Source: a virus
Virus record (IMG/VR): IMGVR_UViG_3300027881_000008
Coordinates: 1-64,000 of that record
Direction: 5' to 3' (one strand)
Length of the DNA: 64,000 nucleotides
The notes below the pieces were generated by a model. That model searched no databases, was not told the DNA's origin, and saw only the letters and a program-made list of their open reading frames with translations. The first letter of the stretch is position 1, and every line of letters starts with the position of its first letter. A program made the position numbers and the translations under genes. Shown here one piece after another: positions 1 through 33,598 of the stretch.

Positions 1-762
1 CTTGGTGATCGTCGGCGGAGGGATGTAAGTGGTCGGGGGGTACCACGGGTACCAGGGCGTGGTGGTGCCTGGGGGGATCCCCGGGAGCTGGCCCGCGCCT
101 CCTCCGCCGCCCGAAGGCCAGGAGGGGGAGAGTGCGGCGGGCGGTGGGCCGTCGGCCTTGCCCAGGAGCGCGTCGGCGCTCCAATCGGCGGGTCCGCAGG
201 GCGTGAGGTCCACGTAGGTCTGGTCGCGTGGGGTAGGACGAGCCGGTTCCAGGCCAGGAGGCGGCGGAGGAAAGTCGGGGCAAGCGGGGCCGAGGAGCTT
301 CCCGCGAGCTTCGACGTACGCCATGCCGCCGCCCGGGACGTGGACGATGGAAGCGTCGTCAGTCAGGTCGGTAACGTCGTTGGCGGTCACGAACGGGATC
401 GCGCGGGCGTCGTAGCCTGGGAGCGAGTAGTGGCTCGTGAAGACACCCATGTTCGTGTTGGCAGTTCCGGGCCGGTGGTAGGGATCGAAGACGCCGCTGC
501 CGAGGACATCGTCCTGCTGCTCAAGGTCGTAGATTTCTGCGTGCTCATCGCGCTCGATCACTTGTTCGGATTTCATGGGTGCCGCTCCTAAACCGGGAAG
601 ATACCGCCCGTTCTGGGCGGCGTACTGGTGCGCGAACTCGGGGTTGAGCTGGCCCGTGAGAGCCAAGCGCGAACTCACCGGCGACGAGTCGTACGCGGGC
701 CCGTAGTGCAGTTGGTTAGACGGCGCTTGCAGGTCGTCGTACTCGTTGGATGTCCTAGACAT
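1..762 (-). CDS. Partial low-complexity Pro/Gly-rich protein (runs off window start), probably virion-associated
   Basis: Not in the ORF track. My translation from the minus-strand ATG at 762 (MSRTSNEYDDLQAPSNQLHYG...YLPGLGAAP...GSGVFDP...) is open to position 1. It carries the PGLG and GVF motifs shared with neighbours. Confidence 0.7.
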   Translation of the reverse strand, partial: MSRTSNEYDDLQAPSNQLHYGPAYDSSPVSSRLALTGQLNPEFAHQYAAQNGRYLPGLGAAPMKSEQVIERDEHAEIYDLEQQDDVLGSGVFDPYHRPGTANTNMGVFTSHYSLPGYDARAIPFVTANDVTDLTDDASIVHVPGGGMAYVEARGKLLGPACPDFPPPPPGLEPARPTPRDQTYVDLTPCGPADWSADALLGKADGPPPAALSPSWPSGGGGGAGQLPGIPPGTTTPWYPWYPPTTYIPPPTITK

Positions 763-798
763 GCGTTAGTAGCCCCCGCCCGGGAGGCCCCCAAAGGG

Positions 799-1827
799 TC
801 ATTGCCCTAGCCCGTCCGGACCGCTTCCGAAGCCCGAGGCAGCTGTGAGCGCCGCGTATTGGTTTGTGGCGGGAACCGGGTCGGAGGATGGGTTTATCGT
901 CATCTGAGCGGGCACGTTTCCGGGCCGGAACTCGTAGACCGGGGTGGAGAAGATGCTCTTAGCCAGGCGGCGGTTTCCCGGAACGGACCCTCCGAAGATG
1001 GACGACGCTACGCCGCGCCGTTGGATGACCCGGGACTGGCGCTCGGGGTACGGGCGCGGCGAAATGGGGCGCGGCGCCCTGGCAGGGCCGCCTCTCGGTG
1101 TGTACTCGCCCATGCCGCTCATCGGCTGGGGGATCCCCCAACCGACCTGGGGGATAGGCTCCATGTTAGTCGGGTTGGGGAGCACGTTGATTTGCGTCGG
1201 CGGGAGCATGACGTGAGGACTCGCGCCGTGGTAATAGGCGCTCGTGGGGCTCTGGCCTCGGATGTTTAGCGAGTTGCCGTCGAGCACGCCGCCGCGGGGG
1301 GTGCTCGAACCGGGCCAGTCCTCTTGCGCCGTGAGGGGGCCCGTCCAAACCGCTTGGGTGCGGTTGTCGATGAGGCGCATGGGGTCCATGAGCTGCATCC
1401 CCGGGTTCACTCCGGGCGCGGAGATGTTACCCAAGCCGGCAGCAGCGATGGCCGCGTTCGCCCGCTCCCATTGCTGAGTCTCGGCTCGGGTGGGGTAGCC
1501 GAGGGCGATGTCACGCGGCTGAAAGCCTACCCGCTGCTCGTGCGGCCAGCCGGGCACCGCGCTTACCTCAGCTCCGGTGGGCACGCCGTTGCGCGCTACC
1601 AAGGGCCAGGTGCGCATCGGTACCGTCCCGGTGTAGTCGGTGAAGTAGCCGCACTGGGACCCGGACGAGGCCATCTGCGGACCCTCGAACACGCCGCCGC
1701 GACCCGCGTAGTGACCCTCGGGGAAGCCGGCCCCGGGACCGCACGGCGCTCCGATGGGATGAGAGGAAATCGGCTGCTGAAGAGGAAGCCGGGGGACGGT
1801 GTTGTAGGACTGCAGTCGAGTGGTCAT
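799..1827 (-). CDS. Low-complexity P/G/Q-rich protein with G-phi-G and GxF motifs, putative minor virion/cement protein
   Basis: 342-aa ORF with AGLGN, SGMGEY, SGFGS, terminal DGLGQ, plus GGVFEG, GGVLDG and SSIFGG. Confidence 0.6.
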   Translation of the reverse strand: MTTRLQSYNTVPRLPLQQPISSHPIGAPCGPGAGFPEGHYAGRGGVFEGPQMASSGSQCGYFTDYTGTVPMRTWPLVARNGVPTGAEVSAVPGWPHEQRVGFQPRDIALGYPTRAETQQWERANAAIAAAGLGNISAPGVNPGMQLMDPMRLIDNRTQAVWTGPLTAQEDWPGSSTPRGGVLDGNSLNIRGQSPTSAYYHGASPHVMLPPTQINVLPNPTNMEPIPQVGWGIPQPMSGMGEYTPRGGPARAPRPISPRPYPERQSRVIQRRGVASSIFGGSVPGNRRLAKSIFSTPVYEFRPGNVPAQMTINPSSDPVPATNQYAALTAASGFGSGPDGLGQ

Positions 1828-1844
1828 AATCGAATCGATTCCTT

Positions 1845-2255
1845 TTAGACGCGGTGGCCTGAGCGAGTGAATACCTCTGTGTGGTAGCAGCCCCCGTAAC
1901 GCGAACCTTGAAAGCCAGGGTGAGTATCAAGGTCGATGAGCTGGGCCGTCTTGGCCCCCATATAAAAATACCCCAAGAACGCCTTGTCGACGGGCCCGAA
2001 GAGATGGAACCACCCGCGAGGGCCCTCGTAGGTTGGGCTGCCGGGGAGCCACGCCTTGTCCCAAAGGCTCTTCGCGGGCGACGTTTCAAAGAGGCGGTAA
2101 GGTGCCGGGTTGTTGAGCCCGCAGTTGTAATTGAACCGGTGGGCCATTGCGTCGCTCACCCACGCCCACCCAACGAAGCGCCATTTGAGAGAGCCGAACG
2201 GGTCCCACGAGCGCATCCCGGGGTCGTTTTGCCAAAGCTTGTACCATTTCGTCAT
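1845..2255 (-). CDS. Hypothetical aromatic-rich protein
   Basis: ATG at 2255 overlaps the upstream stop (TGATG coupling); W/Y/F-rich. Confidence 0.55.
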   Translation of the reverse strand: MTKWYKLWQNDPGMRSWDPFGSLKWRFVGWAWVSDAMAHRFNYNCGLNNPAPYRLFETSPAKSLWDKAWLPGSPTYEGPRGWFHLFGPVDKAFLGYFYMGAKTAQLIDLDTHPGFQGSRYGGCYHTEVFTRSGHRV

Positions 2256-2881
2256 CAGTCGAGGCTCCAAACTAGGATCTTCTTGGCCTTCCGCGCGGCC
2301 TCGCGCTCGCGTGGTCCAGCGACGCTGTCCATCAAGATCCACGCATTACTCTTTGGCTCTTTCACCCGCACCGCCACATGGGTGAGAGCGTCGCCCCCGA
2401 ACCCCATCGCGATGAACTCGACCTCGCGCCCGATGGCGAGCGCCATGGTGGCGGCCATCATCGCGCTCTCGTCACAGTCGACGGCGGTGGTGCCCGCCTG
2501 CATGATTTCTTCGACCTGGCGCAGGGGGTCCTTGACAAACTCCACATGGCGGGGGTCGTTGGTGTAGCGAAATAGGGGAGTCCCCGGACGCATCGGGCTA
2601 GACTGCACGAACACGTTACGGATGGCTAGGATCTCCCCCAGGTAGTCTTTGGGCCAAACGTCGGCCAAAACCCAGGTGGTGAAGGCGCGCACTACCGGGC
2701 TCTGTTCGCCCCGAGGGCCCAGCGCGAGCCTCGTCATCACGCGCAGGGTGTCGCGCGCTCCCCGAAAGGGAGCGAGTTCGGCGGACGGAAGCTTGCCCAG
2801 AAACGAGGCACGCGAGTCGCCCGTGACAGTGGGGGCGCCGCGGGTCGAAGGGCGAAATGGGGGTGCGAAATGGTGCATCAC
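2255..2881 (-). CDS. Transglutaminase-like (papain-fold) cysteine enzyme, candidate maturation protease
   Basis: Triad motifs DCDESAMM (Cys), THVAVRV (His) and WILMDS (Asp), plus RYTNDP..VEFVKDP. Confidence 0.8.
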   Translation of the reverse strand: MMHHFAPPFRPSTRGAPTVTGDSRASFLGKLPSAELAPFRGARDTLRVMTRLALGPRGEQSPVVRAFTTWVLADVWPKDYLGEILAIRNVFVQSSPMRPGTPLFRYTNDPRHVEFVKDPLRQVEEIMQAGTTAVDCDESAMMAATMALAIGREVEFIAMGFGGDALTHVAVRVKEPKSNAWILMDSVAGPREREAARKAKKILVWSLD

Positions 2882-2974: not shown

Positions 2975-5362
2975 TCACGACGCAGGAGTGGCGCCGACCT
3001 TGGAGGCAGCCACCGCCCAGAGCGCCCGGACGTACCGCCGCCCGTGGCGCGTGACGATGGCGCTGTCGGCGCTGATCTGTCGCGCCGTCTCCACAACGTC
3101 GGACATGGCGAACTTCTCAAGCAGCTCGCGGGTAGCCTCGGCGCCGATCCGGCCGACGATCCCGTCGGCGAAAAGCTCGGGGGTTATCGTCTTTCCTGCG
3201 ATAGCCGAGTCAAGCTCAGTGAAGAAGAGCGTAACCGACTCGCCGTCTAGCGGGGTAGGGGCGTCCGGGGTCCCCTCTGCGTGGGGCTCGGCGGCAGCCT
3301 CCTGTTCCGCGGGCGGCGGGAGGGCCTCCTGCTCCACGGGCTCCTGCGCGCCTTCTTGGATGGGAAGACCTTCGACGGCCGGCTGGAGGGGCGAGCTAAC
3401 CATGGGCGGGTGCGCCCCCAGGGGCGGGGGAGTCACGGCGCCGAAAGAGGCGGCGCCAATCGGAAGCGGCGAGTATTGGGGGGGCGCCCCGAAAGGCGCG
3501 GCGCCGGCGCCCTCTTGGTAGGCGGCGGGCGACGGGGCCGCGGGCGGCGCCGCGGCCAGCTGGCGGGTGGGTGCCTGGCGCTCCTGCTGTTGCCGTTGAA
3601 TCTGTTGCTGCCGAAACTGCTGCTGCTGAGCGAGGTGGGCGCGTGCGCGCTCCGCCTGCTCCTGGTTCTGGACGCGGTTGTGGGCGACCTTCTCCAAAAT
3701 CTCGGGGACCTTTTCCACTACGCCCCTGGCTAGCCCCACGAGCTGGTCGGCGAGCGAAGAAGGAGGAGCCTCCCCGCCGCCAGTATCGACCTCGCTCGGG
3801 TGGACCATCCCCGACCAGCGCGACATCTCTTGGGCCTCTTGCAATGCTTGCAGCGGCTCCTTGTGGGTCTGTTGGAGGAGGTCGGAGTTGTGGGTCCGCG
3901 CTTCAGATAGCCGCTTTTCCATCTCGGCGACGCGGCGCTCCGCGTCCGCGCGCGCCCTGTCGGAGTCGCGCTGGGCGAGATCGATCTTCCCTCCCGCCAT
4001 CTCTTTGACCAAGGTCGACTGCACCCGTTCCGACTCCCGGACGCTCGCCACCTCCCGCGCGGTCTGCTCGCGTATGGCGGTGAGCTCGCGCTCAGAAGCA
4101 CGTCGCAGATCTTCGAGCCGCGACTCTTGGGTCTCGCGCAACTGGCGGACCTCGATCTCTTTGGCGCGCTCGACTTGGTCGATGCGATGGCGCGCATCTT
4201 CGCGTTGCCGCTCCCGCTCCAGGTTCTGGCCGGACTCGTACCCGCGCCGTTCCTCTTGGTAGCGGCGGGTCATCTCGTCCACCTGGCTGCGGTGGTCCTC
4301 GACGGTCTGCTCGTTCTTGCGTTGGTTCTCCTCAAGGACGCGCCGACGGTCCTCCTCGTATCGCTCTTTGAGTTCGGCAGTGGACCGGCTGTGGGACTCT
4401 CGCAGGTCGTTGTGCCGCTCGTCGAAGCGCTCGCGCATCTCGCGCATGCCCGACGTTTCGATCTGCCGGCTGGTGTTGGCCGCTTCGGTCTCTGCCCGCA
4501 TAAGGCGCTCGCGCAGGCTTCGGATCTCCTCGAGCTGCGCGGCCTCGGTCGCGCGAAGTCTCTCGACCTCTTGTTGCCAGAACGCGAGCTGCGCGTGGTT
4601 CTGTTCTTTGACGTCGCCCCAGGCTCGTTGGACGGTTTGGTTGTAGTGGTCGAGAGCCTCGAAGGAAGGCTGGCTTCCCCCGTTACTGCTCCCGCGTTGG
4701 TCGCGTTCGGCTTGCAAGCGTTCCTCCATCCGGCGCCTGTCCTCGGCTAGTTCTCGCTCGCGCTCTCGCGCAATTTGAAGGCGCGTCACCTCCACCTTTT
4801 CGCTGGGCATCCCGAAATTTCGTGGGTCAAATCTCACCGCTTCGTCCTCGTTGCTCGTAGTAGCTATTCCTTCTAATGTGGGGTCACCCGGGACGCGGAA
4901 CTTGACGTCCTTGACCTGCTTGTAGTCGCTCTGGGTCGCCCCCGTAGCAGAGGAGACGGGACGCATGACCGCGACGATGTACCGCCCCCCGCCGAACTTC
5001 TGAGCGAACTCGTCCATGCTCATTCGCTCGAAGAACTCGCCGAGATAGCCTGCTGTGGCACAGCCGCGAAAACTCGGAGGACTCGTTCGGGTAACTCGGA
5101 TCTTCCAGTCCCCTCGGCCTACCTGGGGGCAAGACGCGTAGAGGTCTTCGAGGGCCTTGGGGCTGGGCGCCGACTCTTCCCGGTGGCGCGGCCTCTGCTC
5201 GTCGATGATCCCGAAAGGCGAGGTGGGCAGCGACGCGAAGGGGACCGGGGCATCCGCCTTTGGGGCTCCGACCTCGGGCAACTCGAAGTCCTGTGCCTGT
5301 TGCTGTCGGGTGATTTCTGCCGCGCCGTCCGAGACTGGGCCACGCTGCTCAGGCACCGTCAC
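2975..5362 (-). CDS. Long coiled-coil protein (scaffold/tape-measure-like, inferred)
   Basis: 795 aa. N-terminal globular region (FGGGRYIV), about 330 aa of E/R/Q-rich heptad-like sequence, a Q/P-rich linker and a small C-terminal helical domain. Confidence 0.65.
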   Translation of the reverse strand: MTVPEQRGPVSDGAAEITRQQQAQDFELPEVGAPKADAPVPFASLPTSPFGIIDEQRPRHREESAPSPKALEDLYASCPQVGRGDWKIRVTRTSPPSFRGCATAGYLGEFFERMSMDEFAQKFGGGRYIVAVMRPVSSATGATQSDYKQVKDVKFRVPGDPTLEGIATTSNEDEAVRFDPRNFGMPSEKVEVTRLQIARERERELAEDRRRMEERLQAERDQRGSSNGGSQPSFEALDHYNQTVQRAWGDVKEQNHAQLAFWQQEVERLRATEAAQLEEIRSLRERLMRAETEAANTSRQIETSGMREMRERFDERHNDLRESHSRSTAELKERYEEDRRRVLEENQRKNEQTVEDHRSQVDEMTRRYQEERRGYESGQNLERERQREDARHRIDQVERAKEIEVRQLRETQESRLEDLRRASERELTAIREQTAREVASVRESERVQSTLVKEMAGGKIDLAQRDSDRARADAERRVAEMEKRLSEARTHNSDLLQQTHKEPLQALQEAQEMSRWSGMVHPSEVDTGGGEAPPSSLADQLVGLARGVVEKVPEILEKVAHNRVQNQEQAERARAHLAQQQQFRQQQIQRQQQERQAPTRQLAAAPPAAPSPAAYQEGAGAAPFGAPPQYSPLPIGAASFGAVTPPPLGAHPPMVSSPLQPAVEGLPIQEGAQEPVEQEALPPPAEQEAAAEPHAEGTPDAPTPLDGESVTLFFTELDSAIAGKTITPELFADGIVGRIGAEATRELLEKFAMSDVVETARQISADSAIVTRHGRRYVRALWAVAASKVGATPAS

Positions 5363-6003
5363 GCGTTCTCCGGCGCGCCGTTCGCGCCTGCCGCGGGGGT
5401 CGCCGGCTCGTCGTCCTCGCCGGCCTCGTCTTCCTCCTCGAAGTCGGGCTCGGCGTCGGCTACCCGGTCAACGAGTAGGTCGCACTTGGCGGCGGCCTCC
5501 ACCAGTTCCTGTTTGGCCCCCTCGTCCAGTCCCGGGTTGCCGGCTAGGTCGGCCTCACAGCGCGCCTTGAGCATCCCGGCGACTTCCAAGATCAGAAGCG
5601 CCGTCTCCTCGTCCCACGGGGACTCTGGGTCGGACTGCTCCAATTCGAGAAGGCGCTCGTTCAGTTCAGCAATATGGGCATCCCGGGCGGGGAATCCCTG
5701 CTGTAACACCCAGTCCCGAAAATGGTGGGCGTTCCCTCGCTCGGTGAGCGCCTCACCGATAAAATCCTGCAAAAGGGGGAGCACCGTGTCGGCGATCTCT
5801 CTGGCAAGCTTGCGGGTTGAAGGATCCTCAAGGGCGCCTAAACGGTCCCGCTCGCGGGGCAGCTCCATGAACAGCGACAAAAGGCCGTCCTCGGCGCTCG
5901 GTGCCGCCTGCTGGGGAGCCGAAGGGGGAGCAGCTGGAGCTGCGGGAGCCTCTGGCGGAGGGGGAACAACCTCGGCTGGTGTAACGTGGGCAGTCTCGGT
6001 CAT
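5359..6003 (-). CDS. Hypothetical acidic helical protein
   Basis: 214-aa ORF with an AGGAG RBS upstream; GTGA overlap with the next gene. Confidence 0.65.
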   Translation of the reverse strand: MTETAHVTPAEVVPPPPEAPAAPAAPPSAPQQAAPSAEDGLLSLFMELPRERDRLGALEDPSTRKLAREIADTVLPLLQDFIGEALTERGNAHHFRDWVLQQGFPARDAHIAELNERLLELEQSDPESPWDEETALLILEVAGMLKARCEADLAGNPGLDEGAKQELVEAAAKCDLLVDRVADAEPDFEEEDEAGEDDEPATPAAGANGAPENA

Positions 6004-6022
6004 GATCTCGTTTTCTCCTCGG

Positions 6023-6883
6023 TCACCCCTTCAAACCGAAGGGGCGTATCAGCTCCAGGTGGCGGCGCCCGTCGAGATGCTCGTCGTCTCGGCGGTCCAA
6101 CTCTTTTGCGACCGACGCCTCGTCATAGGGCTGCCGGTAGTCGCAGGCGTAGACCGCCTCGTTGCTGACGGTCATGAACGCACCGCCGACGCTCCTGCGC
6201 TTTGTGCAGTTGCGGTAGAAGATGAGGTGCCCGAACTCGTCAGGGTCGGGATAGTCGTCGTTGGCCATGAGCTGCCGCTTGTAAAATCGGCACCGTTCTC
6301 GGAGCTGGCGCACAGGGGTGAAGGGTGAGAACCCCTGGAGTCCTTCGTCGGCGTCGCCAGCGGGAACGAGGGGGACACCCCAAAGAAAGACGACTTCCTG
6401 CGGCTTGAAGCGATTCCTCTCCTGGGGCGCGCCATCCTCGTCGTACCGGGGACGGCCAAAAAGAGACATGTCGCCGTCCTGGGCGCCGGGGGCGTCCCAC
6501 GCCCTGGCCTCAGCCGCCTGGCTTTCGTGGTCGCGCGAGCGCCACCCCCGCCCCTCCAGTTCGTCGGCGAACAACTCGACGTACTCGCTGGGGTCCTCGA
6601 CGCACACGCACGTCGCGCGAGTGAACGGATGGGCGAGACTTAGCTTGTCTGTCTCGTCTCTCGGGACCGGCATCCCGTCGGCGGGATGGGGCACCATGAC
6701 GTCGTACCGAGGCTTGAAGGTCTCGAGAATCTCCTCGCGGTGGTCGTACTCCGACTCCGCCGCCGTGCCGTCTCGCTCCGCGGGCGCCACCGCGCACTTC
6801 GCTGGATCAGCATCGCACTCCGACGCATCGGCGTCCGCAAGTGGTTCGTCTTCCAGGTCCTTCCCAGGTTCTTCCTCAGCCAC
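6023..6883 (-). CDS. Hypothetical acidic protein with Cys cluster
   Basis: 286-aa ORF, first gene of the leftward operon. TAGCTT -10-like box 6 nt before the GTG. Confidence 0.6.
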   Translation of the reverse strand: MAEEEPGKDLEDEPLADADASECDADPAKCAVAPAERDGTAAESEYDHREEILETFKPRYDVMVPHPADGMPVPRDETDKLSLAHPFTRATCVCVEDPSEYVELFADELEGRGWRSRDHESQAAEARAWDAPGAQDGDMSLFGRPRYDEDGAPQERNRFKPQEVVFLWGVPLVPAGDADEGLQGFSPFTPVRQLRERCRFYKRQLMANDDYPDPDEFGHLIFYRNCTKRRSVGGAFMTVSNEAVYACDYRQPYDEASVAKELDRRDDEHLDGRRHLELIRPFGLKG

Positions 6884-23386: not shown

Positions 23387-23389
23387 GCC

Positions 23390-25243: not shown

Positions 25244-25273
25244 GCATATCCAGGTAGAAAGAGAAGACTACAA

Positions 25274-25990: not shown

Positions 25991-25996
25991 CCACCC

Positions 25997-26620
25997 GTGA
26001 TCCAACAGTTTCTCGGTCAGTTGTTTGGGCAAGCGGCCCAACACGCGGCGCGCCACGGCGGTCTGGAGGACCCCGAGGTACGTCGCGGGTTGCAGGTATT
26101 GGGGAATATCCAGCAGCACCTCTACGGCCGCTGGCTTCAGGCTCGGTCTACGCGGGTGGCCTGTTCGATCCGCCTCAACCACCCTCAGCACGGGGTGCTC
26201 CGCTGCGCAGAGTCGATGGCTGGCCTGTGCACCGCGTGCGACAATCCCGTGTGCATCGAACACGCTGCCGTCGTGGTGGCGACGGGCGACCCGGTGTGCT
26301 TCGCGTGCATCGACCTGGCGCGCGCTGCGGTCACCGAGCGCGGACACGCTGTGCCGCCCGGCTCGTCGACCGGCGCGGCTGACGAGATAGACGCCAAGCA
26401 ACGGACGAAGCTGCGGCGCAAGTACCTTCGGCGCCTCGGACTGAAAGCCAACGCCGACCAGGCTCAGATAAACGCGGCCTTCAAGAAGAAAGCCGCAGCG
26501 GCTCACCCGGATAAGGCGGCTCCTGGTCCGGCCAGGGACCGAGCGCATGAGCGCTTCGTCGAGCTCGGGCGTGCCCGCGAGTGGCTGCTCGAGGACTTGG
26601 AAAAGAGGGAGGCAGCGTGA
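25997..26620 (+). CDS. Zn-finger plus C-terminal J-domain (DnaJ-like co-chaperone)
   Basis: CTAC..VCIEH..CFAC; LGLKANADQAQINAAFKKKAAAAHPDK with an intact HPD. Confidence 0.85.
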   Translation: MIQQFLGQLFGQAAQHAARHGGLEDPEVRRGLQVLGNIQQHLYGRWLQARSTRVACSIRLNHPQHGVLRCAESMAGLCTACDNPVCIEHAAVVVATGDPVCFACIDLARAAVTERGHAVPPGSSTGAADEIDAKQRTKLRRKYLRRLGLKANADQAQINAAFKKKAAAAHPDKAAPGPARDRAHERFVELGRAREWLLEDLEKREAA

Positions 26621-27003
26621 CGAAACGCCGTGCCGAGCTAAAGGATAGTCTGCGCGCAGCGGCCATGTTCCGCGTGTTCCAGCCACTGGACGCGGCGGGG
26701 ATCGCGCCGGTTCCCGCACCCATAGGCGTCACCAACTGGGCGGTCTTCGACATCGAGGGATATACGCCCTCGGACGCCGTTGTGACACGCCTCGACGAGC
26801 TGGGAATAGCGACTCTCGATTACGAGCCCCAGCGCGACGACGCCGAGGCGCCTGACGACTTCGACGACTCAGACGCGGCGATTGAAGCGCTTTTGGACGG
26901 TTGGTGGCTGTGCGTCGTGCCCGATACTCTGCGGTCTCCCTATTCCCGCCTCCTGGTGGTGGAGCGGGTGACCCCACCTTCCCGCATAGGAGCGAAACCG
27001 TGA
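26617..27003 (+). CDS. Hypothetical acidic protein
   Basis: GTGA coupling on both sides. Confidence 0.55.
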   Translation: MTKRRAELKDSLRAAAMFRVFQPLDAAGIAPVPAPIGVTNWAVFDIEGYTPSDAVVTRLDELGIATLDYEPQRDDAEAPDDFDDSDAAIEALLDGWWLCVVPDTLRSPYSRLLVVERVTPPSRIGAKP

Positions 27004-27527
27004 AGTACGAATTGTTTTACGCGACCGGCGGCCATGGCGGTCCCTACGAGGGAAAGGCCGCGGCCTTGGAGGCAGCACGCAGACTCGTCGGCGGTGCTAA
27101 CGGCAGCTACATCGACGTCGTCCCCTACTCCCAGCCCTGGGAAGCGACCCCGGTGCGTGACCTGCACCTCCTGCGGGGTGTCGAGCGCGTGTACGCTGCA
27201 CCTGACGGCTGGTATTCTGAGGAGTACGAGACTCTAGCCGACAAGATGTTCGCGGAGCGGAACCCAGGCGCGAGAGCGGCGGAGTCCATCTACGTCATGA
27301 AGGCCGGGGAGGGCAACTACTACGCTCGCCGCACCACCAAGCCTCCGAAGTACCTGCGCTGGGAGTTGCAGCTACCCGACCCGCGCTCGTGGGGAGGCGG
27401 GATGAAAAGGGCGCACTACCGCCCGGCCGGCGGAAAGCTCTACTCACGCTCCGGTCTCAGCGCGCGCTTCGAGACCCTCAAAGAGATTAAGAAAGCCTAC
27501 CCCGGCGACTGGCGGAAGGTCCAATGA
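27000..27527 (+). CDS. Hypothetical two-part protein (RNP linker)
   Basis: AGGAG RBS, GTG at 27000. Confidence 0.55.
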   Translation: MKYELFYATGGHGGPYEGKAAALEAARRLVGGANGSYIDVVPYSQPWEATPVRDLHLLRGVERVYAAPDGWYSEEYETLADKMFAERNPGARAAESIYVMKAGEGNYYARRTTKPPKYLRWELQLPDPRSWGGGMKRAHYRPAGGKLYSRSGLSARFETLKEIKKAYPGDWRKVQ

Positions 27528-27802
27528 CCTACTCCCACCAGCAGCAGCAGCAGCACCAGCCCTACGGCCAAATCCCTGGTCTCCCCGTCCCCGGCGCTCC
27601 GGTGGGGGACGAGGTCTTGAAGGACGTCTCGGTGCGAGCGTTCGAGCATATCTGGCCGCTAATGGAGACGCGCCTCGACGAGAAGCTCGCGCGGGAGCGG
27701 TACGTGACGTTTGCGATGAGCGGGCTCGCCATGGCGGGATATTTTGCACTGCTGTGGGCGGTGGGCGTCAAGCTCCCGTGGCAGCGGAAATGGCGACGAT
27801 AG
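27524..27802 (+). CDS. Small membrane protein
   Basis: Q-rich N-terminus (PYG); TM helix followed by RKWRR. Confidence 0.6.
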   Translation: MTYSHQQQQQHQPYGQIPGLPVPGAPVGDEVLKDVSVRAFEHIWPLMETRLDEKLARERYVTFAMSGLAMAGYFALLWAVGVKLPWQRKWRR

Positions 27803-28192
27803 ATGGCATCGTACCGACCCAACTACTGGAACAACTACCCCGAGCCTTTCTACGCGGACTGGCAGCAGGAACCGATCCCCGGGTGGGGCGCCCGCCCGGT
27901 CATGGCGGGCCCAGCTCGCGTGGGGGTGGGCGCCATGATCAGCTTGGCCAAAGAGCAGAAGCTTTCGTCGCACCTTACGTTGGCCAGGATAAAGCCCCAC
28001 ACGTTGGCCAGGATAAATCCCCACGCGATTGTGCGGCTGCCCGGATTCGTGGGAAAGCCGCCGGCCGACGAGGGAGGAGGCGGAACCACCCCTTCAGAGC
28101 CGTCGTCCGGTCTGCGCTGGTTTATCGCGGGTGCGCTCGTCTTGTCGGTCGGCGGCATCGGCTTCTACCGTGGATGGAAGGGAAAGCGATGA
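27803..28192 (+). CDS. Small tail-anchored protein
   Basis: RVGVG motif; TLARIxPH duplication; TM helix followed by KGKR. Confidence 0.65.
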   Translation: MASYRPNYWNNYPEPFYADWQQEPIPGWGARPVMAGPARVGVGAMISLAKEQKLSSHLTLARIKPHTLARINPHAIVRLPGFVGKPPADEGGGGTTPSEPSSGLRWFIAGALVLSVGGIGFYRGWKGKR

Positions 28193-29550
28193 GCTACCAG
28201 GGGATAGGCGCGCCGCCGGGGATGACACTGCTAGGCGGCGGCGCTGGCGCAGTAGGGCGCCGTGACCTCGGCGCAGTCGATGACCGGCCGGGGATGGCAC
28301 TGCTAGGCGGCGGCGCTGGCGCAGGCTGTTCGCTCGGGTACGAGCTGTCGGGGATGGACCCGCAGAGCGCTTCGTGCCCCGGGGGCGGTTGCGACTCGGA
28401 TTATTGCTGCTCTCCCCGAGACTGGCGCGACTCGGTTTATTGGAAGCTCAAGGGCGCGGTAAACTACGCGTACTTTCAAGAGGCATCTATCCGCAAATCT
28501 CTCTACCAGCTCCTCGACGTCCCTACCCCCACCGGGTTTCCGAGTCGTCTGGACGAGTACGCCTACGACGCCTGCGGGGACGAAGAGGGCCCAGCCTTTA
28601 CGCAGAGTCTCGAGGCGCTGCGGGCGCGCCTCAAGCGCGCCGGGTTTAACCTGTGGAATATCTTGCCCCCCGACCGCTGGTCCCGCGAAAAGAAAGGGGT
28701 GCGCTCGGAGTGCCAGAGCGACGGCTGGCTCAGCCAGATGCGTGCTCCCTATCCCTACAAGATCAGCGGCGGGGGCTTCATGGCGCGGTTGGCCTACTGG
28801 CGCGACGGCCCCATCGAGGGAGAGCGGGCGAAGTCCGTCTACAACGTTACGGGCGGCCATCCTGGCGCCTTCAAGGACTGGCTGGCCGACAAGGCGATTC
28901 CCCTGATCGCGACTTCGCCGACGAGCACTCGTATCGAGAACTCGTCCTTCAACCCGGATGGATACGACTCTGGCGGCGACCCTAGGTGGAAGGCCAAGGC
29001 GCCGTGGGCGCTGGTGGACCGTTGGATAGGCACCACCGCGCCGGCAGAGATAGCCCCGCTCATGCTCACCTGCGGTCCCAACTCCCGCCTGGGGGGCTGC
29101 TCCGGGTGCGAGGCCCCACCCGACCGTTGGGCGGCGCAGCACGGCGGCGACCCAGGCAACCGAGTCACGATGCGCGATATGGGGAAAGCCCCCTCGATGC
29201 GCTGGTGGGCTCGCTTCTTGGACGTGTTCGCCCCTTTGCCCGACGTGGGCTGGGAGCCTGCGACGAAGGCCGGTCGCGCTGCCCAACAAAGCCGCTTCGT
29301 TCTCGCTAAAACGCCGGGGCGGGTGGCGGCCCACAGCGCTTCTCTTCCTTCGCTGATGGCGGTTAGGAAGCCAGCCCCTAGGTTCGTGGCTTCGGACGAA
29401 GGGATCGAGCGGCGCGTCGGGGGCGGCACCCCGCCGGCACCGCCGGGCAAAAGCGCCACACAAGGAGCTGTCCCATGGGTCCTGGCGGGACTTGTTGGGG
29501 CGGGCTTGGTTGGCGGCGGCGTGTGGTATTGGAGGAGCAGGGATGTATAG
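28189..29550 (+). CDS. Cys-rich tail-anchored protein, paralog A (spike/receptor-binding candidate)
   Basis: MSYQGIG; shares two near-identical blocks with the next gene; TM helix followed by WYWRSRDV. Confidence 0.75.
   Translation: MSYQGIGAPPGMTLLGGGAGAVGRRDLGAVDDRPGMALLGGGAGAGCSLGYELSGMDPQSASCPGGGCDSDYCCSPRDWRDSVYWKLKGAVNYAYFQEASIRKSLYQLLDVPTPTGFPSRLDEYAYDACGDEEGPAFTQSLEALRARLKRAGFNLWNILPPDRWSREKKGVRSECQSDGWLSQMRAPYPYKISGGGFMARLAYWRDGPIEGERAKSVYNVTGGHPGAFKDWLADKAIPLIATSPTSTRIENSSFNPDGYDSGGDPRWKAKAPWALVDRWIGTTAPAEIAPLMLTCGPNSRLGGCSGCEAPPDRWAAQHGGDPGNRVTMRDMGKAPSMRWWARFLDVFAPLPDVGWEPATKAGRAAQQSRFVLAKTPGRVAAHSASLPSLMAVRKPAPRFVASDEGIERRVGGGTPPAPPGKSATQGAVPWVLAGLVGAGLVGGGVWYWRSRDV
28513..28654 (+). 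repeat. 142-bp direct repeat (second copy at 29822-29963)
   Basis: Two mismatches by eye. A second, less identical block pairs about 29058-29250 with about 30608-30800. Confidence 0.9.
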
Positions 29551-31105
29551 AGCAGTGGGAAAGCCGCCAGGGGTCGGTTTGGGATCGTTTGGTCCCGGCA
29601 CCGCAGGCGCAGGCCCCGGCTGCAGCTTGGGCTACGAGAGGGGGGGGATGGAGCCCGAGAGCAAGGACTGCCCTACCGGGGGGTGCGACAGCGAGTTCGG
29701 CGACGCGAGGGACTGTTGCGGCGTCTCACATTGGCGAGATTCTGTCTACCACAGGATCAAGGGGGGGCAAGCCTATCAGTACTTCCAAGAGGCGGCCATT
29801 CGGAGGGCCCTTTACGACCTGCTCGACGTCCCTACCCCCACCGGGTTTCCGAGTCGTCTGGACGAGTACGCCTACGACGCTTGCGGGGACGAAGAGGGCC
29901 CAGCCTTTACGCAGAGTCTCGAGGCGCTGCGCGCGCGCCTCAAGCGCGCCGGGTTTAACCTGTTCTCGATCCTTCCCCATAGCCGATGGTTCGTGGACGC
30001 CACCGGGACCAAGAGTCCCAAAGCCATCGACGTCGTGCACTTGGCCCCGTGTAGCGACTCTCAAGAAGACGGCTGGTACAGCAAGCGTCGCGTGTACCCC
30101 TACCTGAACGACGACTTCGTTCGGGTCAAGGTGAAAGGAAACGACGGCAAGTACCGGTGGGTCGTGAAGCCTCGCGGCACGACGACGGAAAACAAGAAGT
30201 ATCCGTGGGACACGGGAGAAAGGGAAGGGGGGGAGCCCGTTTGCGCCCGGCAGGACGGGGGTTGGACCGCGCACCCCGCCATGTCCACCATACCCGGTGG
30301 GAGTAATCTGTTCGGCCCTGAAAACTCGGAACTCAAAAAGGGCTTCAAGAACCCCTGCATCGGGGGCGCGCCGACCGTCAACAAAGAGATGGCGATATTT
30401 AACGTCACGGGCGGCAAGCCGGCCAAGTTCTGGGACTGGTGGGAGGACTTCGGAAAACCCCTCATTCGTTTCTCCCCCATCAGCAGCAGGGAACACCACT
30501 ATGGGGGACACCGAGACGCCTCTGCGACGCCGCGCTGGAAAGCGTGGAACCCCGAGCAAACGGAGAAACGGTTCACGGGCACCGTAGGTCCGGCTGAGGT
30601 GGCCCACCTCATGCTCACCTGCGGGCCCAGTTCGCGCTATGGAGCCTGCTCCGGGTGCGAGGCGCCAGCCGACCGTTGGGCGGCGCAGCACGGCGGAGAC
30701 CCAGGCAACCGAGTCACGATGCGCGACATGGGGAAAGACATCTCGATGCGCTGGTGGTCGAGGTTCTTGGACGTTTTCGCCCCTATGCCTGACGTGGGCG
30801 GCGGCGCCCCGAAAATCGACACGAGCAAGCTGAAGGCCGGGCTGAAGTTGTTCACCGCGCCGAAGAAGGGAGCGACTGGGATTTCTATCCACGGGCAGAT
30901 CGCTCCAGGTGCATTAAAAGCTGCGAGCATGGCTGTTTCGAGGCGGCCTGCCCCGGTGTTAGTGGCCCACGACGAGGGCTCCGTAGACGCCCCTCCACTG
31001 CCCCCAGCGCCTGCTCCCAAAAGCAACGTCCCCTACATTCTGGGTGGCATCACGGCGGTCGGCCTGGTCAGCGTAGGGGTCTGGTATTGGAGGAAGGATG
31101 TATAA
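29543..31105 (+). CDS. Cys-rich tail-anchored protein, paralog B
   Basis: MYRAVG..GVGLG; same conserved blocks with a longer variable centre; TM helix followed by WYWRKDV. Confidence 0.75.
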   Translation: MYRAVGKPPGVGLGSFGPGTAGAGPGCSLGYERGGMEPESKDCPTGGCDSEFGDARDCCGVSHWRDSVYHRIKGGQAYQYFQEAAIRRALYDLLDVPTPTGFPSRLDEYAYDACGDEEGPAFTQSLEALRARLKRAGFNLFSILPHSRWFVDATGTKSPKAIDVVHLAPCSDSQEDGWYSKRRVYPYLNDDFVRVKVKGNDGKYRWVVKPRGTTTENKKYPWDTGEREGGEPVCARQDGGWTAHPAMSTIPGGSNLFGPENSELKKGFKNPCIGGAPTVNKEMAIFNVTGGKPAKFWDWWEDFGKPLIRFSPISSREHHYGGHRDASATPRWKAWNPEQTEKRFTGTVGPAEVAHLMLTCGPSSRYGACSGCEAPADRWAAQHGGDPGNRVTMRDMGKDISMRWWSRFLDVFAPMPDVGGGAPKIDTSKLKAGLKLFTAPKKGATGISIHGQIAPGALKAASMAVSRRPAPVLVAHDEGSVDAPPLPPAPAPKSNVPYILGGITAVGLVSVGVWYWRKDV

Positions 31106-32795
31106 AGGTATCTGGGTGCCGCCGGGGATGGGCGCGTACGACGACTCTCCCGACGAGGCGGACTGGGGACATCGCAAGGTGCCCTCGCCAGCCTACCCTT
31201 GGGACGGGTGGGACAAAACTGGCAAGCACCCTGACGCGGCGGACTTCGGCTACGACACCGCCTCGGCCTATAGCCTTCTTGACGACGGCTTCCTCAACGA
31301 ACAGACGAAGATCGCGCTACCCGGGATGCCAAACACCGGCGAGTTGATACAGCTGGTGGGACCACCTTCCCAGTCTGCGGTTCTCGGCGTCAGGTCGGCT
31401 CTCGAAGGGGCGACGGGGCTGCCCGTGGACAAGATCGCTTCTACCATGGGGGTCGACCTCGGCCTCATGGGGTCGATGGTGGGCAATCTGGTAAGAGGAG
31501 AGACCGAGGTCGCCCAACAACAGGCGCTCCAAATGGGAAAGGGGATCCTGAAGGCGGGGCTAGACCTCGCCTTTGGAAACATCCCAATCGTCGGGCAGAT
31601 CGTAGGGATCGCCGCCGACGTCGTGTTCGCTTTGCTGGGAAACGCGGCGAAGTTCCAAGCGGAAAAAATTCACAAGGCGACGCTCGATCAGGTGAGGAAA
31701 GAGCTGCAGAGCCGCTGCGACACGCTTTACTCGATAGGCCAAAATCCCGTGAAGACGGGGATCTCACTAGGGGACGGTTCCCTGATGGCCACGCCCTCCG
31801 ACTTGTTCCGCCCGGTGAGGGAAGCCTACGAATCTGGGAGCGGCGTATTGCCGATGACACCCGCGTCTGTCTACGTGCTCCTGTGCGGCGCGGAGAGCCA
31901 AGGGTTTGGCTTCTCCCGCCAGGAATGGGAACAAAAGAACGCGGGCTACGGCATCACAATACCGCCCCCGGTCCAGCGGCGGATGTGGAAGTGCATCAAA
32001 GCGATCTTCTCAGCGGTCCAACATCCCAGTGCGCAGTACGTTCCGGGCGACGGCGGCAAGTCGTCTTACATGGTCGTCCAAGAACTGGTGCGTACGCAGA
32101 GGGAGTCAAACAACTTCTCCGAAAGATCGATCTGGATGCTCGCCACCGAGCTCGCCGCCCGCGTCACCTATTGGCACCCTGACCCCAAGAAGGAAGAATG
32201 GGGCCCTTCAGGAGCCGGCGAGTACAACCGATACTACGGGGGAAACTGCTCCGGCACCGTGATGTGGCACGGCGCGGGCGGTCAGGGGGAGGAGTGCTTC
32301 AAGCGTGGCGGCTGCCAGACCCCCCAGGTGGTCTTCAAGAAGACGCGCGGGCGCTACATGGAGTGGGAGAAGGCCGAGAAAATCTCGGGCCCGACCGATT
32401 TCGCAGTAGCTCCTCTCGTGCGCGCCATAGCATCTCCTCAGACGGGCACCTTCTGGGTCGGTCAGGGCAAGTGGGCCGCGCTCATGCGCGAAGCTTACAG
32501 GGACCCCAAAAGCGGGCGCTTGGGCCTTTACCCGAACGAGAAGTTCGTGGCCGCACAGGGTCTCGACCAGCCCCGGGAGGCCAACAGCAAGCTGACTTTG
32601 AGCCTCGCGGGCACCCAACACCTCGTCATGAACCTGAAGAAGTCCATCGACGTTCAGGACGAGGGAGCCGAGGGGGAAGAGGAAGGCCCCAGCTTGGTTC
32701 CGTGGGTGTTGGGCACCGCCGTTCTTGGCACCGGAGCCTACTTCGGGGCCCGACAGCTGGGGCGGATGGGACGGAAAAAGGGCTGGGGGAGATAA
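31098..32795 (+). CDS. Large tail-anchored protein with an internal hydrophobic/amphipathic segment
   Basis: MYKGI..PPGMG; IPIVGQIVGIAADVVFALLG; C-terminal TM helix followed by RKK. Confidence 0.7.
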   Translation: MYKGIWVPPGMGAYDDSPDEADWGHRKVPSPAYPWDGWDKTGKHPDAADFGYDTASAYSLLDDGFLNEQTKIALPGMPNTGELIQLVGPPSQSAVLGVRSALEGATGLPVDKIASTMGVDLGLMGSMVGNLVRGETEVAQQQALQMGKGILKAGLDLAFGNIPIVGQIVGIAADVVFALLGNAAKFQAEKIHKATLDQVRKELQSRCDTLYSIGQNPVKTGISLGDGSLMATPSDLFRPVREAYESGSGVLPMTPASVYVLLCGAESQGFGFSRQEWEQKNAGYGITIPPPVQRRMWKCIKAIFSAVQHPSAQYVPGDGGKSSYMVVQELVRTQRESNNFSERSIWMLATELAARVTYWHPDPKKEEWGPSGAGEYNRYYGGNCSGTVMWHGAGGQGEECFKRGGCQTPQVVFKKTRGRYMEWEKAEKISGPTDFAVAPLVRAIASPQTGTFWVGQGKWAALMREAYRDPKSGRLGLYPNEKFVAAQGLDQPREANSKLTLSLAGTQHLVMNLKKSIDVQDEGAEGEEEGPSLVPWVLGTAVLGTGAYFGARQLGRMGRKKGWGR

Positions 32796-32819
32796 CCAAC
32801 CACCTGTAAGGAGCGAACA

Positions 32820-33062
32820 ATGAGCGAAAAAATGAACTGGATACAAAAGCTGTCACATAGGAAAGACCCGGGGCGAGACGCCTTCGACGCGGCCCAGAAG
32901 GCGGCCCAGGAGGCGGCCGGTAAGGCGCCTGTCCAAGAGGCCGAGGCTGACCCTGTCGTGGTAGCCGAGCCCGATCCGGCTCCCGAGCCCGAACCCCCAG
33001 TTGAGGTGGCGCCCGAGCCCGAGCCCGAAAAGCCCAAGCGCGGCAGGTCGCGAAGGCGGTGA
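32820..33062 (+). CDS. Small P/E-rich protein with basic tail
   Basis: AAGGAG RBS. Confidence 0.6.
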   Translation: MSEKMNWIQKLSHRKDPGRDAFDAAQKAAQEAAGKAPVQEAEADPVVVAEPDPAPEPEPPVEVAPEPEPEKPKRGRSRRR

Positions 33063-33598
33063 GTTACGTCGGAGTGGGCAAGCCCCCCGGCGGCGGTGGC
33101 CGTGGCGGCGGTGGCCGTGGCGGCGGTGGCCGTGGCGGTGGAGGGCACGCGGGTATGGGTCCCGGTCCTGGTCCTGGGCCGCATCCTGGGCCCCATCCTC
33201 ACCCTCACCCTCATCCCGGGCCCGGCCCCCATCCTCACCCGGGCCCTCACCACCGGCCTGGCTGGGGTAGGCGCCGTCGGCGGCTACGGTGGGGCGGCTA
33301 TGCGCCGCCTGGCTACTACGACACCACGCCGTGGTACTTCACAACCGGCGACCAGTGCAGCTACTACGGAGGCCGGAAACAATGCGTATTGGCGGGTCCC
33401 AACGACTACGGGGGCGACCCCTTCTGCGACCCTGGTTGGGTGAGGCGGTGCATCGTACCGCTCGGCAGTTGCGCCAGTCTGGGCGGGTACAAGCAGTGCA
33501 TCCCTCTCCTTGCCGGCGACCCGCCTGATCCTCTATGTCCAACCGGGAACTCACGCCAGTGCGTGCTCCCTCCGCTTCGAGGCGGCTACACATGGTAG
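33059..33598 (+). CDS. Gly/Arg- and Pro/His-repeat protein with two Cys-rich repeats
   Basis: MSYVGVG; (GGGGR)3; (PH)n; two C.S.GG.KQC...DP.C...R.C repeats. Confidence 0.65.
   Translation: MSYVGVGKPPGGGGRGGGGRGGGGRGGGGHAGMGPGPGPGPHPGPHPHPHPHPGPGPHPHPGPHHRPGWGRRRRRLRWGGYAPPGYYDTTPWYFTTGDQCSYYGGRKQCVLAGPNDYGGDPFCDPGWVRRCIVPLGSCASLGGYKQCIPLLAGDPPDPLCPTGNSRQCVLPPLRGGYTW

Follow-up and report, generated by a model that had tools for sequence, protein, structure and literature searches.

A short N-terminal Gly-hydrophobic-Gly tag on C-terminally anchored late proteins of uncultured bacterial viruses that also encode a transglutaminase-fold enzyme

The window analysed here is a 64-kb stretch out of a 75-kb viral contig whose completeness is estimated at about half. 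A candidate cysteine enzyme is encoded near its left end, and further along lies a late/structural block in which the genes for an ultrabasic core protein and for capsid-like proteins are directly followed, in an order conserved in relatives, by a run of genes whose products begin with a short common peptide, referred to as the tag (phi denotes a hydrophobic residue). The features are as follows.

1-762, minus strand: conserved neighbour of the enzyme gene, truncated by the contig end, with a P-G-L-G motif.
799-1827, minus strand: 342 aa, Gly/Pro-rich, with four G-phi-G motifs, among them AAAGLG and, at the C-terminus, GFGSGPDGLG.
2255-2881, minus strand: cysteine enzyme, 208 aa, with Cys136-His168-Asp185, no transmembrane (TM) helix and a disordered N-terminus.
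12932-15343, plus strand: core protein, 803 aa; an ultrabasic N-terminal region of ~500 aa followed by hydrophobic helices and, last, an acidic tail.
15484-18304, plus strand: three consecutive capsid-like genes (15484-16278, 16491-17522 and 17519-18304), syntenic in the related genomes G001 and G004.
18301-18528, plus strand: 75 aa, C-terminally anchored; Y-G-M-G at residues 12-15, a weak case.
18528-18965, plus strand: tag protein starting M-Y-G-L-G; Pro-rich, with a C-terminal TM helix and basic tail.
19099-20037, plus strand: tag protein, M-Y-R-G-I-G; PKPPT-repeat linker, C-terminal TM helix and basic tail.
20015-20689, plus strand: tag protein, M-S-Y-K-S-L-G; repeats in common with the core-protein tail, a weak PG_binding match, C-terminal TM helix and basic tail.
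20925-21467, plus strand: tag protein, M-S-Y-V-G-L-G; PG_binding_1 domain, C-terminal TM helix and basic tail.
21464-22687, plus strand: tag protein, GTG start, N-Y-T-G-I-G; PG_binding_1 match just under the Pfam cut-off, TM helix at 260-276 and a 131-aa tail with 50 Lys/Arg.
22697-23386, plus strand: C-terminally anchored; Y-T-G-V-G at residues 22-26, a weak case.
23390-24604, plus strand: C-terminally anchored, without the tag, as are 25274-25990 and 27524-27802.
24617-25243, plus strand: C-terminally anchored; Q-G-L-G at residues 10-13, a weak case.
25997-26620: J-domain protein inside the tag block, kept in relatives.
27803-28192, plus strand: C-terminally anchored; V-G-V-G at residues 40-43, a weak case.
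28189-29550, plus strand: tag protein, M-S-Y-Q-G-I-G-A-P-P-G; Cys-rich ectodomain and C-terminal TM helix; paralogue of 29543.
29543-31105, plus strand: tag protein, M-Y-R-A-V-G-K-P-P-G; C-terminal TM helix.
31098-32795, plus strand: tag variant, M-Y-K-G-I-W-V-P-P-G-M-G; C-terminal TM helix and basic tail.
33059-33598, plus strand: tag protein, GTG start, S-Y-V-G-V-G-K-P-P-G; Gly/His/Pro-rich then Cys-rich, no TM helix.
35848-38918: two GT4-type glycosyltransferase genes, just downstream of the tag block.

The window virus belongs to an undescribed and widespread group of large bacterial viruses, and homologue searches across this uncultured lineage place the capsid-like protein in more than 645 clusters and the enzyme in more than 250. 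Literature searches returned no published description of the clade or the tag, and tblastn of GenBank phages with the capsid-like protein and the enzyme as queries gave no match and no cultured clade member. The middle capsid-like protein (16491-17522) has more than 645 unnamed homologues and matched only unnamed viral clusters in the protein atlas; its AF2 model, a long helix and a beta sandwich, is poor (pLDDT 56.6), and the comparison made with it to jelly rolls, the capsid fold of internal-membrane icosahedral viruses (Varidnaviria), gave weak Z scores, 6.2 with a capsid chain of PBCV-1 and 5.7 with the capsid protein of SPV1. The model-based assignment of the three-gene block to the capsid is a weak one. 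The tag carriers are probably virion proteins, a status that rests on gene order, because neither a packaging ATPase nor a terminase was found: the PF01580 (FtsK_SpoIIIE) model had no match in five records, the structural block contained no small P-loop protein, Terminase_6N was absent from five records, two of them complete, and the 25 Pfam families listed, out of 47, for G001 included no terminase, portal or HK97-fold capsid family.

Nine proteins carry the tag in firm form, with the pattern M-(S/N)-Y-x(0-2)-[GAS]-phi-G(W) at the exact protein start (18528, 19099, 20015, 20925, 21464, 28189, 29543, 31098 and 33059). The core form is Met-Ser-Tyr-x-Gly-phi-Gly, in which phi is Leu, Val or Ile, and it often continues x-x-P-G. 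An earlier note on this DNA had proposed a G-phi-G leader on about 18 otherwise unrelated proteins; all 13 of its listed examples lie where it placed them, whilst the total was overstated, with nine firm cases, some four plausible ones and the core-protein tail as a further case. The motifs in the 18301, 22697, 24617 and 27803 proteins stand at a distance of 11-43 residues from the start, none of them significant on its own, and the strict tag is missing from seven anchored proteins of the block. That the carriers are unrelated is mostly right: BLAST among them joins only 28189 with 29543, 20925 with 21464, and 20015 with the core-protein tail.

A start-codon-anchored six-frame scan recovered eight tag ORFs and the 31098 variant ending in W, and none in the reversed genome. 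The same scan also yields a doubtful 67-aa frame at 41550. Six of the nine tag starts overlap the stop of an accepted upstream gene by 4-23 bases; at 20925 the upstream frame, ending at 20928, is a doubtful ORF. The Tyr is residue 2 or 3 and the tag occupies residues 2-7 in this clade, with no conserved Cys, Gln or Lys, and it is confined to the late/structural block.

In related contigs, where co-occurrence had been suggested as a check, the tag recurs, and the enzyme accompanies it in every relative tested for it. Tag and C-terminal anchor are found together in ten of them, which brings the total to 38 instances from 11 sources (genomes or loci, comprising the window, G001, G004 and other related viral contigs), with 32 of the 38 sharing one Tyr-to-phi spacing; reversed-sequence nulls gave 0, 0 and 2 for three genomes and 0 for seven further loci. 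The enzyme is present in four of four relatives tested, its gene adjoining tag-bearing genes. A search for relatives without the tag, to see whether they lack the enzyme too, started from the tag-less branch of the 565-aa family (the product of 31098) and returned no viral contig; the one 20-kb metagenome contig that it gave has neither tags nor enzyme and is too short to be informative. The only outside homologue of the 29543 protein, P0122, starts M-S-Y-Q-G-I-G in an independent gene call.

Tag codons vary between copies, and conservation is therefore at the protein level; a nucleotide-level element is ruled out. It is highly improbable that the tag has no common function and is either the remnant of an ancestral N-terminal module, spread by duplication or recombination, or a by-product of translation initiation. 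Some carriers are paralogous, and the tag codons end in A/T unusually often for a genome of 66% GC, a bias to be expected close to starts; yet the peptide is kept while its codons change, across genomes whose capsid-like proteins share only 40-57% identity, the remaining sequence of the carriers has otherwise diverged past BLAST detection, and non-structural genes do not have the tag.

Within the family of the 565-aa protein, which has ~100 representative homologues, a strict N-terminal tag occurs in only 2 of 84 full-length members, and [S/A/G]-phi-G lies a few residues upstream of a conserved box in 29 of 58, the others having none; the tag is therefore neither universal nor always terminal. 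In distant members a variable leader, 5-35 residues long, comes before the motif, a range shared with the cultured phage SSIP-1, in full Salisaeta icosahedral phage 1.

Enrichment over background holds for the anchored tag and for the core-protein tail, and is only modest for G-phi-G genome-wide (75 observed versus 51 expected). The acidic core tail (nt 14612-15343), for which about eight motifs had been reported, holds 8 versus 1.35 expected, a count reached in none of 2000 shuffles, and tandem QAAAG-phi-G and G-phi-G-E-Y units persist in the core-protein orthologues, of 761 and 835 aa. These motifs are internal, C-terminal to the TM helices, and G-phi-G is the sole part common to the S-Y-x-G-phi-G of the tags and the Q-A-A-A-G-phi-G of the core tails. 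The recurrence also claimed for the left-end ORFs is weakly upheld for 799-1827 (4 versus 1.4 expected, P ~0.04) and does not extend to 1-762, where the single copy is no enrichment by count; the position of this copy is kept in the G001 and G004 orthologues, which adjoin the enzyme gene and end in a TM helix.

One TM helix with a basic tail is found at the C-terminus of eight of the nine tag proteins, the exception being 33059, which is also the only one of 16 cluster proteins without a single TM helix near the C-terminus, all such calls coming from a simple hydropathy scan rather than a dedicated predictor. The tag is statistically linked to this anchor in G001 (6/7 versus 23/206, P = 2.5e-5) and in G004 (P = 0.003), and in seven further loci the anchor is present in all 17 tag matches. 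Consistent with the earlier note, no N-terminal signal was seen in the 16 cluster proteins (maximum hydropathy over the N-terminal 15 residues at most 1.2 in 16/16), and in the hydropathy scan tag and basic tail fall on opposite sides of the TM helix. The predicted topology is at odds with simple rules: the basic tail would lie opposite a large N-terminal domain that has no signal peptide. Type IV pilin-like and lipoprotein signals are unlikely, as no hydrophobic stretch follows the tag and no Cys is conserved, and so is sortase/exosortase-type C-terminal sorting, the carriers having no N-terminal signal peptides.

The tight tie between the tag, a single C-terminal TM helix and the missing signal peptide is what would be seen if the tag were a membrane-targeting or topology signal, read co-translationally by a host or viral chaperone or insertase that delivers C-terminal-TM proteins. 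The exact N-terminal position would suit such a reader, and a conserved J-domain protein is encoded in the same block. This role is nevertheless quite unlikely, given a tag protein (33059) that has no TM helix, the internal motifs of the core tail beyond its TM helices and the related motif borne by the soluble enzyme, and we know of no N-terminal targeting system of this kind.

The 2255-2881 product, described earlier as a transglutaminase-like Cys-His-Asp protein, has that fold in its AF2 model (pLDDT 87). A helix (136-149) begins at Cys136, a strand (168-174) begins at His168 and Asp185 follows the strand 181-184, and this triad of C136, H168 and D185 is invariant in 32 homologues out of more than 250. 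Foldseek/VIA matches are transglutaminase-fold proteases and transglutaminases, with Z of 12.8 to 3kd4, 11-12 to TG2 and factor XIII and 8.8-8.9 to LapG/BTLCP; LapG, CPR-C4 and putative proteases are among the best structural matches, and transglutaminases, PNGase and pseudomurein endoisopeptidases have this fold just as well. Pfam and PHROG searches gave no match, the enzyme falls below cut-off for Transglut_core (PF01841) and related Pfam models (one of 32 homologues reaches E = 0.006), and its profile has no meaningful match among PDB sequences. The enzyme constitutes a new sequence family within the transglutaminase-like superfamily. Its disordered, non-hydrophobic N-terminus carries a nearly invariant F-L-G..P motif. 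When the enzyme was co-folded with residues 1-32 of the 28189 protein, the score was 0.25, below the mark, which speaks neither for nor against binding.

The similarity to true transglutaminases, the two glycosyltransferase genes just downstream of the block and the conserved Tyr, a possible acceptor, would suit a modification site, cross-linked by the transglutaminase-fold enzyme or glycosylated by the GT4-type enzymes. Such a function is very unlikely: the tag has no conserved Gln or Lys, which a transglutaminase needs, DNA or the host envelope could just as well be the target of the glycosyltransferases, and to our knowledge no sequon resembles the tag.

A remote homologue of the enzyme, found by profile only (hmmsearch E 1.7e-10, hhalign probability 94%), is gp34 of SSIP-1, an icosahedral internal-membrane phage, with D-C-D, His and Asp lining up in the alignment. 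Gp34 is annotated as a structural protein and its catalytic domain is N-terminal to a C-terminal TM helix, an order from which the domain would therefore lie on the tag side of the membrane. SSIP-1 resembles the window virus in having G-phi-G near the N-termini of anchored proteins; it differs in that the motifs are 17-35 residues from the start instead of at residues 2-7, in that gp34 is 304 aa long and membrane-anchored, and in its genome size (44 kb versus roughly 140 kb). Profiles of the three capsid-like proteins detected no similarity to any SSIP-1 protein.

These data also bear on whether the tag is solely a maturation-cleavage code, G-phi-G being the cut site of a cysteine protease, as for adenain, with no docking role. 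The protease-type fold, invariant triad and structural matches to LapG and CPR-C4 argue for cutting, as do the structural annotation of the SSIP-1 homologue and the variable 5-35-residue leader of SSIP-1 and the distant 565-aa relatives, which resembles a propeptide boundary; LapG, of the same fold, cuts PAAG/AAAG near the N-terminus of an anchored adhesin (PMC6890996), and the core tails contain tandem QAAAG-phi-G. This explanation is unlikely, however: the fold is equally that of enzymes other than proteases, tag and core-tail contexts share G-phi-G only, and a cut site alone leaves the strict position and the conserved Tyr unaccounted for. A recognition tag fits the placement at residue 2-3 better than a cleavage site does, because a cut would remove only 6-7 residues. 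Similarly doubtful is a fuller version in which the enzyme is packaged, recognises G-phi-G on membrane and core proteins and trims them, in a maturation system shared, in diverged form, with SSIP-1; if true, adenovirus, ASFV and poxvirus maturation would have a prokaryotic counterpart that uses another protease fold.

The explanation tentatively preferred, at somewhat short of an even chance, is that the tag is an assembly recognition signal on virion-membrane proteins that is read by a common partner and possibly trimmed by the enzyme. The tag would then be a short linear signal carried on the free N-terminus of late proteins that cross the membrane once and are anchored C-terminally, and one common viral partner would read it during particle building, bringing in or positioning many unrelated proteins, including those that bear peptidoglycan-binding domains. 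The basic C-tails, together with the core protein's ultrabasic half, may face the DNA, with the tagged N-termini and the G-phi-G-rich acidic core tail facing the other side of the membrane. The transglutaminase-fold enzyme may trim the tag afterwards, in the manner of the removal of the T4 capsid targeting sequence (CTS) by the prohead protease.

Membrane-containing tailless phages are thought to be abundant and are poorly understood, and the assembly recognition signal proposed here bears on the selection of their many small membrane proteins for the particle and on the placement of these proteins in it. A shared tag would allow the virion-membrane proteome to be predicted across an uncultured lineage, and could be used to load foreign proteins into particles, a use that the T4 targeting sequence also has. 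SSIP-1, an available phage, could reveal whether prokaryotic membrane viruses have a maturation protease, and the window enzyme and its homologues would form a new transglutaminase-fold family with a viral role.

Several known systems offer partial parallels. C39 double-glycine leaders span 15-30 residues, terminate in GG, GA or GS and are tied to export through ABC exporters. As in a cleavage reading of the tag, a papain-type cysteine peptidase takes off an N-terminal leader ending in small residues; in contrast, the tag has a hydrophobic residue between its glycines, and no ABC exporter is among the Pfam matches listed. Packaged cysteine proteases of adenovirus (adenain), ASFV (pS273R) and poxvirus (I7) mature many particle proteins at short Gly motifs, the adenain sites being (M/I/L)XGX-G and (M/I/L)XGG-X, and Y-x-G-phi-G fits X-X-G-X-G. 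However, these viruses have eukaryotic hosts, their sites are not at residues 2-7, and their proteases belong to a different clan (CE for the adenain type) with the order His-Glu/Asp-Cys, as opposed to Cys-His-Asp on a transglutaminase fold.

LapG, which cuts an anchored adhesin near its N-terminus at the small-residue motifs PAAG and AAAG (PMC6890996), and the bacterial transglutaminase-like cysteine proteinases (BTLCP) acting on LapA-type adhesins have the same fold as the viral enzyme, and the core-protein tails hold tandem copies of the AAAG string. The LapG site is a di-alanine one, (P/T/A)-A-A-G, whereas the N-terminal tags contain no di-alanine; LapG is also periplasmic, calcium-dependent and regulated by LapD and c-di-GMP, whereas the viral enzyme has no signal peptide.

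In T4, the CTS, a conserved N-terminal leader of ~10 residues, steers diverse proteins into the assembling particle (PMC3012670). Like the tag, it is a short conserved leader on otherwise unrelated proteins; its cargo is soluble and goes to the scaffolding core of a tailed phage, whereas the carriers here are membrane-anchored and the window virus has no tailed-phage hallmark genes among the models tried. The prohead protease gp21, which takes off the T4 leader, is of the serine type and cleaves after L/I-x-E, whereas the candidate enzyme here is of the transglutaminase fold and would be a putative cutter only.

Nine proteins start with M-(S/N)-Y-x-[G/A/S]-φ-G (φ, a hydrophobic residue), a peptide referred to here as the tag, with W replacing the final G in the protein at 31098. 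The genes central to the analysis are as follows.

18528, 19099, 20015, 20925, 21464, 28189, 29543, 31098, 33059: starts of the nine tag proteins
31098-32795: 565-aa protein
12932-15343 (+): 803-aa basic protein, referred to as the core protein
15484-16278, 16491-17522, 17519-18304 (+): capsid-like genes
2255-2881 (-): transglutaminase-like enzyme, 208 aa, Cys136-His168-Asp185

All of the peptides listed by the earlier note are present where it placed them, but its count of about 18 tagged proteins is overstated; nine are firm, and the motifs in 18301, 22697, 24617 and 27803 lie 11-43 residues from the start, none being individually significant. Six of the nine tag-gene starts overlap the stop of an accepted upstream gene by 4-23 bases, which supports their assignment; the upstream frame ending at 20928, before the 20925 start, is a doubtful ORF. 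A scan blind to the motif (every start codon in six frames, with at least 50 open codons after it) recovers the nine and almost nothing else, and none in the reversed genome. The generic G-φ-G core motif is in mild excess genome-wide (75 observed, 51 expected). That the tags have no common function is the least probable of the readings weighed here.

The complete related genomes G001 and G004 encode about eight and six tag proteins (reversed nulls 0 and 2), and seven further related loci give 17 matches versus 0 in the nulls. In all, 38 instances from 11 sources define the consensus M-(S)-Y-x-G-[V/L/I/M/F]-G-x-x-P-G, in which the tyrosine is residue 2 or 3 and its spacing to φ is constant in 32 of the 38. 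Tag codons vary freely between copies, and conservation therefore acts on the peptide; the 29543 product has a single outside homolog, a database protein whose gene was called independently, and this too begins with the tag. The first codons of the tag genes (18528-33100) are unusually often A/T-ending (GGA, ATA, CTA, CTT, AAA, TAT) in a genome of 66% GC, in line with the weak mRNA structure expected close to start codons.

One transmembrane (TM) helix followed by a short Lys/Arg tail is found at the C-terminus of 8 of the 9 tag proteins and of all 17 in the extra loci, and the tag-anchor association is significant in the complete relatives (P = 2.5e-5 in G001, 0.003 in G004). The absence of classical signal peptides stands, since an N-terminal hydrophobic segment is found in 0 of 16 block proteins; that the tag is itself a membrane-targeting signal we consider improbable. 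The carriers, otherwise unrelated according to the earlier note, form about six unrelated groups, as BLAST finds only three links: 28189 with 29543, 20925 with 21464, and 20015 with the tail of the core protein. Their recurrent layout consists of the tag, a variable domain, often a Pro-rich spacer, the TM helix and a basic tail, with peptidoglycan-binding matches in the variable domains of three carriers, one above Pfam's cut-off. Exact tandem Pro-rich repeats directly precede the TM helix in two genes (PKPPT four times in 19099-20037, PKPPG five times in 21464-22687) and resemble stiff spacers of fixed length.

The core protein reverses this layout: about 500 ultrabasic residues come first, then hydrophobic helices and an acidic tail rich in G-φ-G. 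The eight G-φ-G repeats reported for this tail are borne out against 1.35 expected, and in orthologs the tail contains QAAAG-φ-G and G-φ-G-E-Y repeated in tandem; the C-tail is a real second case of the motif. The tail shares with the 20015 protein a stretch of 79% identity over 33 aa (BLAST); the common peptide of about 23-33 aa, G-S-Y-Y-E-F-S-P-H-Q-V-F..G-V-G-E-Y-Y-E-T, is encoded at 14783-14851 in the former and at the N-terminus of the latter (20045-20113), and the G001 ortholog has related S-Y-Y-T-L-P-G-M-G repeats.

The 565-aa protein belongs to a much wider family (about 100 representatives), nearly all of whose members retain the C-terminal anchor. The strict tag opens just 2 of the 84 full-length members and is thus characteristic of this sub-clade; in about half, [S/A/G]-φ-G precedes a conserved box by a few residues, after variable-length leaders, and the remainder have none.

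We tentatively favour the tag as a particle-assembly signal, with or without later trimming, at somewhat less than an even chance. The basic parts of the carriers and of the core protein would face DNA and the G-φ-G parts the opposite side, and one common partner would read the tag at free, membrane-distal protein ends during assembly. A signal present on the free ends of many unrelated proteins and repeated on the DNA-holding protein is what would be expected of a tag read by one partner.

The enzyme has over 250 homologs (56-87% identity), none of them named or with a Pfam domain; by sequence the family lies outside all Pfam models, the best Transglut_core match being to one homolog at E = 0.006. 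Its identification as a transglutaminase-like Cys-His-Asp protein is upheld by fold matches and an invariant triad: Asp135-Cys136-Asp137, His168 and Asp185 are invariant across 32 aligned homologs, and a confident model (pLDDT 87) places Cys136 at a helix start and His168 and Asp185 on the next strands. Foldseek returns transglutaminase-fold proteins only (putative protease 3kd4, LapG, TgpA, PNGase, CPR-C4, PeiP and animal transglutaminases), and a second aligner scores 3kd4 at Z 12.8, and TG2 and factor XIII at Z 11-12. For the tag as a modification site we see only a slim chance.

The gene was found in each of the four relatives tested (49-62% identity), and the enzyme is as conserved as the capsid-like protein (43-57% in the same relatives). 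In relatives it adjoins the ortholog of ORF 1-762, whose own motif keeps its position in orthologs but is a single copy, not enriched in count; in G001 and G004 it is located among tag-bearing genes. The enzyme's disordered N-terminus has a nearly invariant [G/S]-F-L-G-x-x-P at residues 25-35, behind a variable leader of 0-40 residues, which may serve for self-processing or docking. Adjoining the enzyme gene, 2975-5362 (-) encodes a 795-aa Glu/Arg/Gln-rich coiled-coil protein, which could be a scaffold or tape-measure candidate and is followed by two very acidic proteins (5359-6883).

A remote homolog of the enzyme is found in the cultured Salisaeta phage SSIP-1, described as an icosahedral phage that has an internal membrane and two major capsid proteins (PMC6356626; PMC4958249).

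L032 21296-22210: SSIP-1 gp34, profile match to the enzyme

The enzyme profile finds gp34 among the phage's 57 proteins (hmmsearch E 1.7e-10; hhalign probability 94%, E 1.4e-7), with the D-C-D, His and Asp positions aligned. Annotated in GenBank as a structural protein, its only label until now, gp34 is a predicted membrane-anchored protein of the transglutaminase fold whose Cys-His-Asp triad is intact; it ends in a TM helix, placing the catalytic domain on the same membrane side as the N-terminal domains of other anchored proteins. G-M-G or G-L-G occurs 17-35 residues from the start in SSIP-1 ORF36, gp37, ORF52 and gp53, among which ORF36, ORF52 and gp53 are C-terminally anchored and gp37 and gp53 are 'structural' in GenBank. 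The motif occupies residues 34-36 of gp37 and 31-33 of gp53.

These variable-length leaders ahead of the motif, in SSIP-1 and in distant relatives, argue for cutting of the tag, as does the modelled enzyme fold, which is of a protease type. LapG, which cuts PAAG and AAAG motifs (PMC6890996), shares this fold, and its AAAG motif recurs in core-protein tails. However, cutting would remove only 6-7 residues and leave the fixed position and conserved tyrosine unexplained, and the same fold occurs in cross-linking enzymes, amidases and cell-wall isopeptidases; we regard a pure cleavage code as unlikely, if the most credible alternative to an assembly signal.

The window covers the first 64 kb of one 75,008-base viral record, which has no terminal repeats and a CheckV completeness of about 52%. 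Its named Pfam matches are accessory and replication genes only.

DnaB-type helicase, Toprim primase
NUDIX hydrolase, GT4 glycosyltransferases
SLT transglycosylase; amidase with peptidoglycan-binding domain
C5 DNA methylase, Mom-like protein
Two SNF2 helicases, very long tyrosine recombinase

The methylase adjoins the Mom-like protein at 48547-50587 (+), probably as an anti-restriction DNA-modification module, and in the 1198-aa protein at 59863-63459 (+) the Phage_integrase domain spans only residues 359-534, leaving roughly 1000 residues unassigned. Among the Pfam matches none is to terminase, portal, an HK97-type capsid protein or tail proteins, and Terminase_6N and FtsK_SpoIIIE were not found in it or in four relatives. 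Two of the four, at 136 and 144 kb, are complete and carry direct terminal repeats, and in these terminase, FtsK-type ATPase and portal were not found among the Pfam matches listed; G001 codes for an OrfB_IS605/Cas12f-like TnpB, a MoxR-type AAA ATPase and a histidine-kinase-like ATPase.

The 12.9-33.6 kb block runs from the 803-aa ultrabasic protein through the three capsid-like genes to a run of single-C-terminal-TM proteins, an order kept in relatives. The middle capsid-like protein has over 645 homologous metagenome clusters, every one unnamed; its poor model (pLDDT 56.6) shows a beta sandwich after a long N-terminal helix and resembles viral jelly rolls only weakly (Z about 6), and the capsid-like proteins have no detectable similarity to any SSIP-1 protein. 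Given the block content and this model, it is reasonable, though unproven, to read the source as a large bacterial virus that contains a membrane and has no tail. The few labelled homologs trace to a Deltaproteobacteria MAG and an unclassified bacterial MAG; GC content in the clade's genomes is 60-67%, and the contigs that carry the protein hits reach 183 kb. The block also encodes a 207-aa protein (25997-26620, +), conserved in G001 and G004, whose middle is Cys-rich and whose C-terminal segment is J-domain-like and holds an H-P-D motif; it could recruit host DnaK during assembly.

Literature searches turned up no account of the clade, its tag or its enzyme family, and tblastn against GenBank phages gave no match. 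The closest precedent for an assembly tag is the T4 capsid targeting sequence (PMC3012670). The present finding would be a T4-like leader-tag system; unlike in T4, the tags are carried by membrane proteins, in a virus in which no tailed-phage hallmark genes were found, and are paired with a transglutaminase-fold enzyme.
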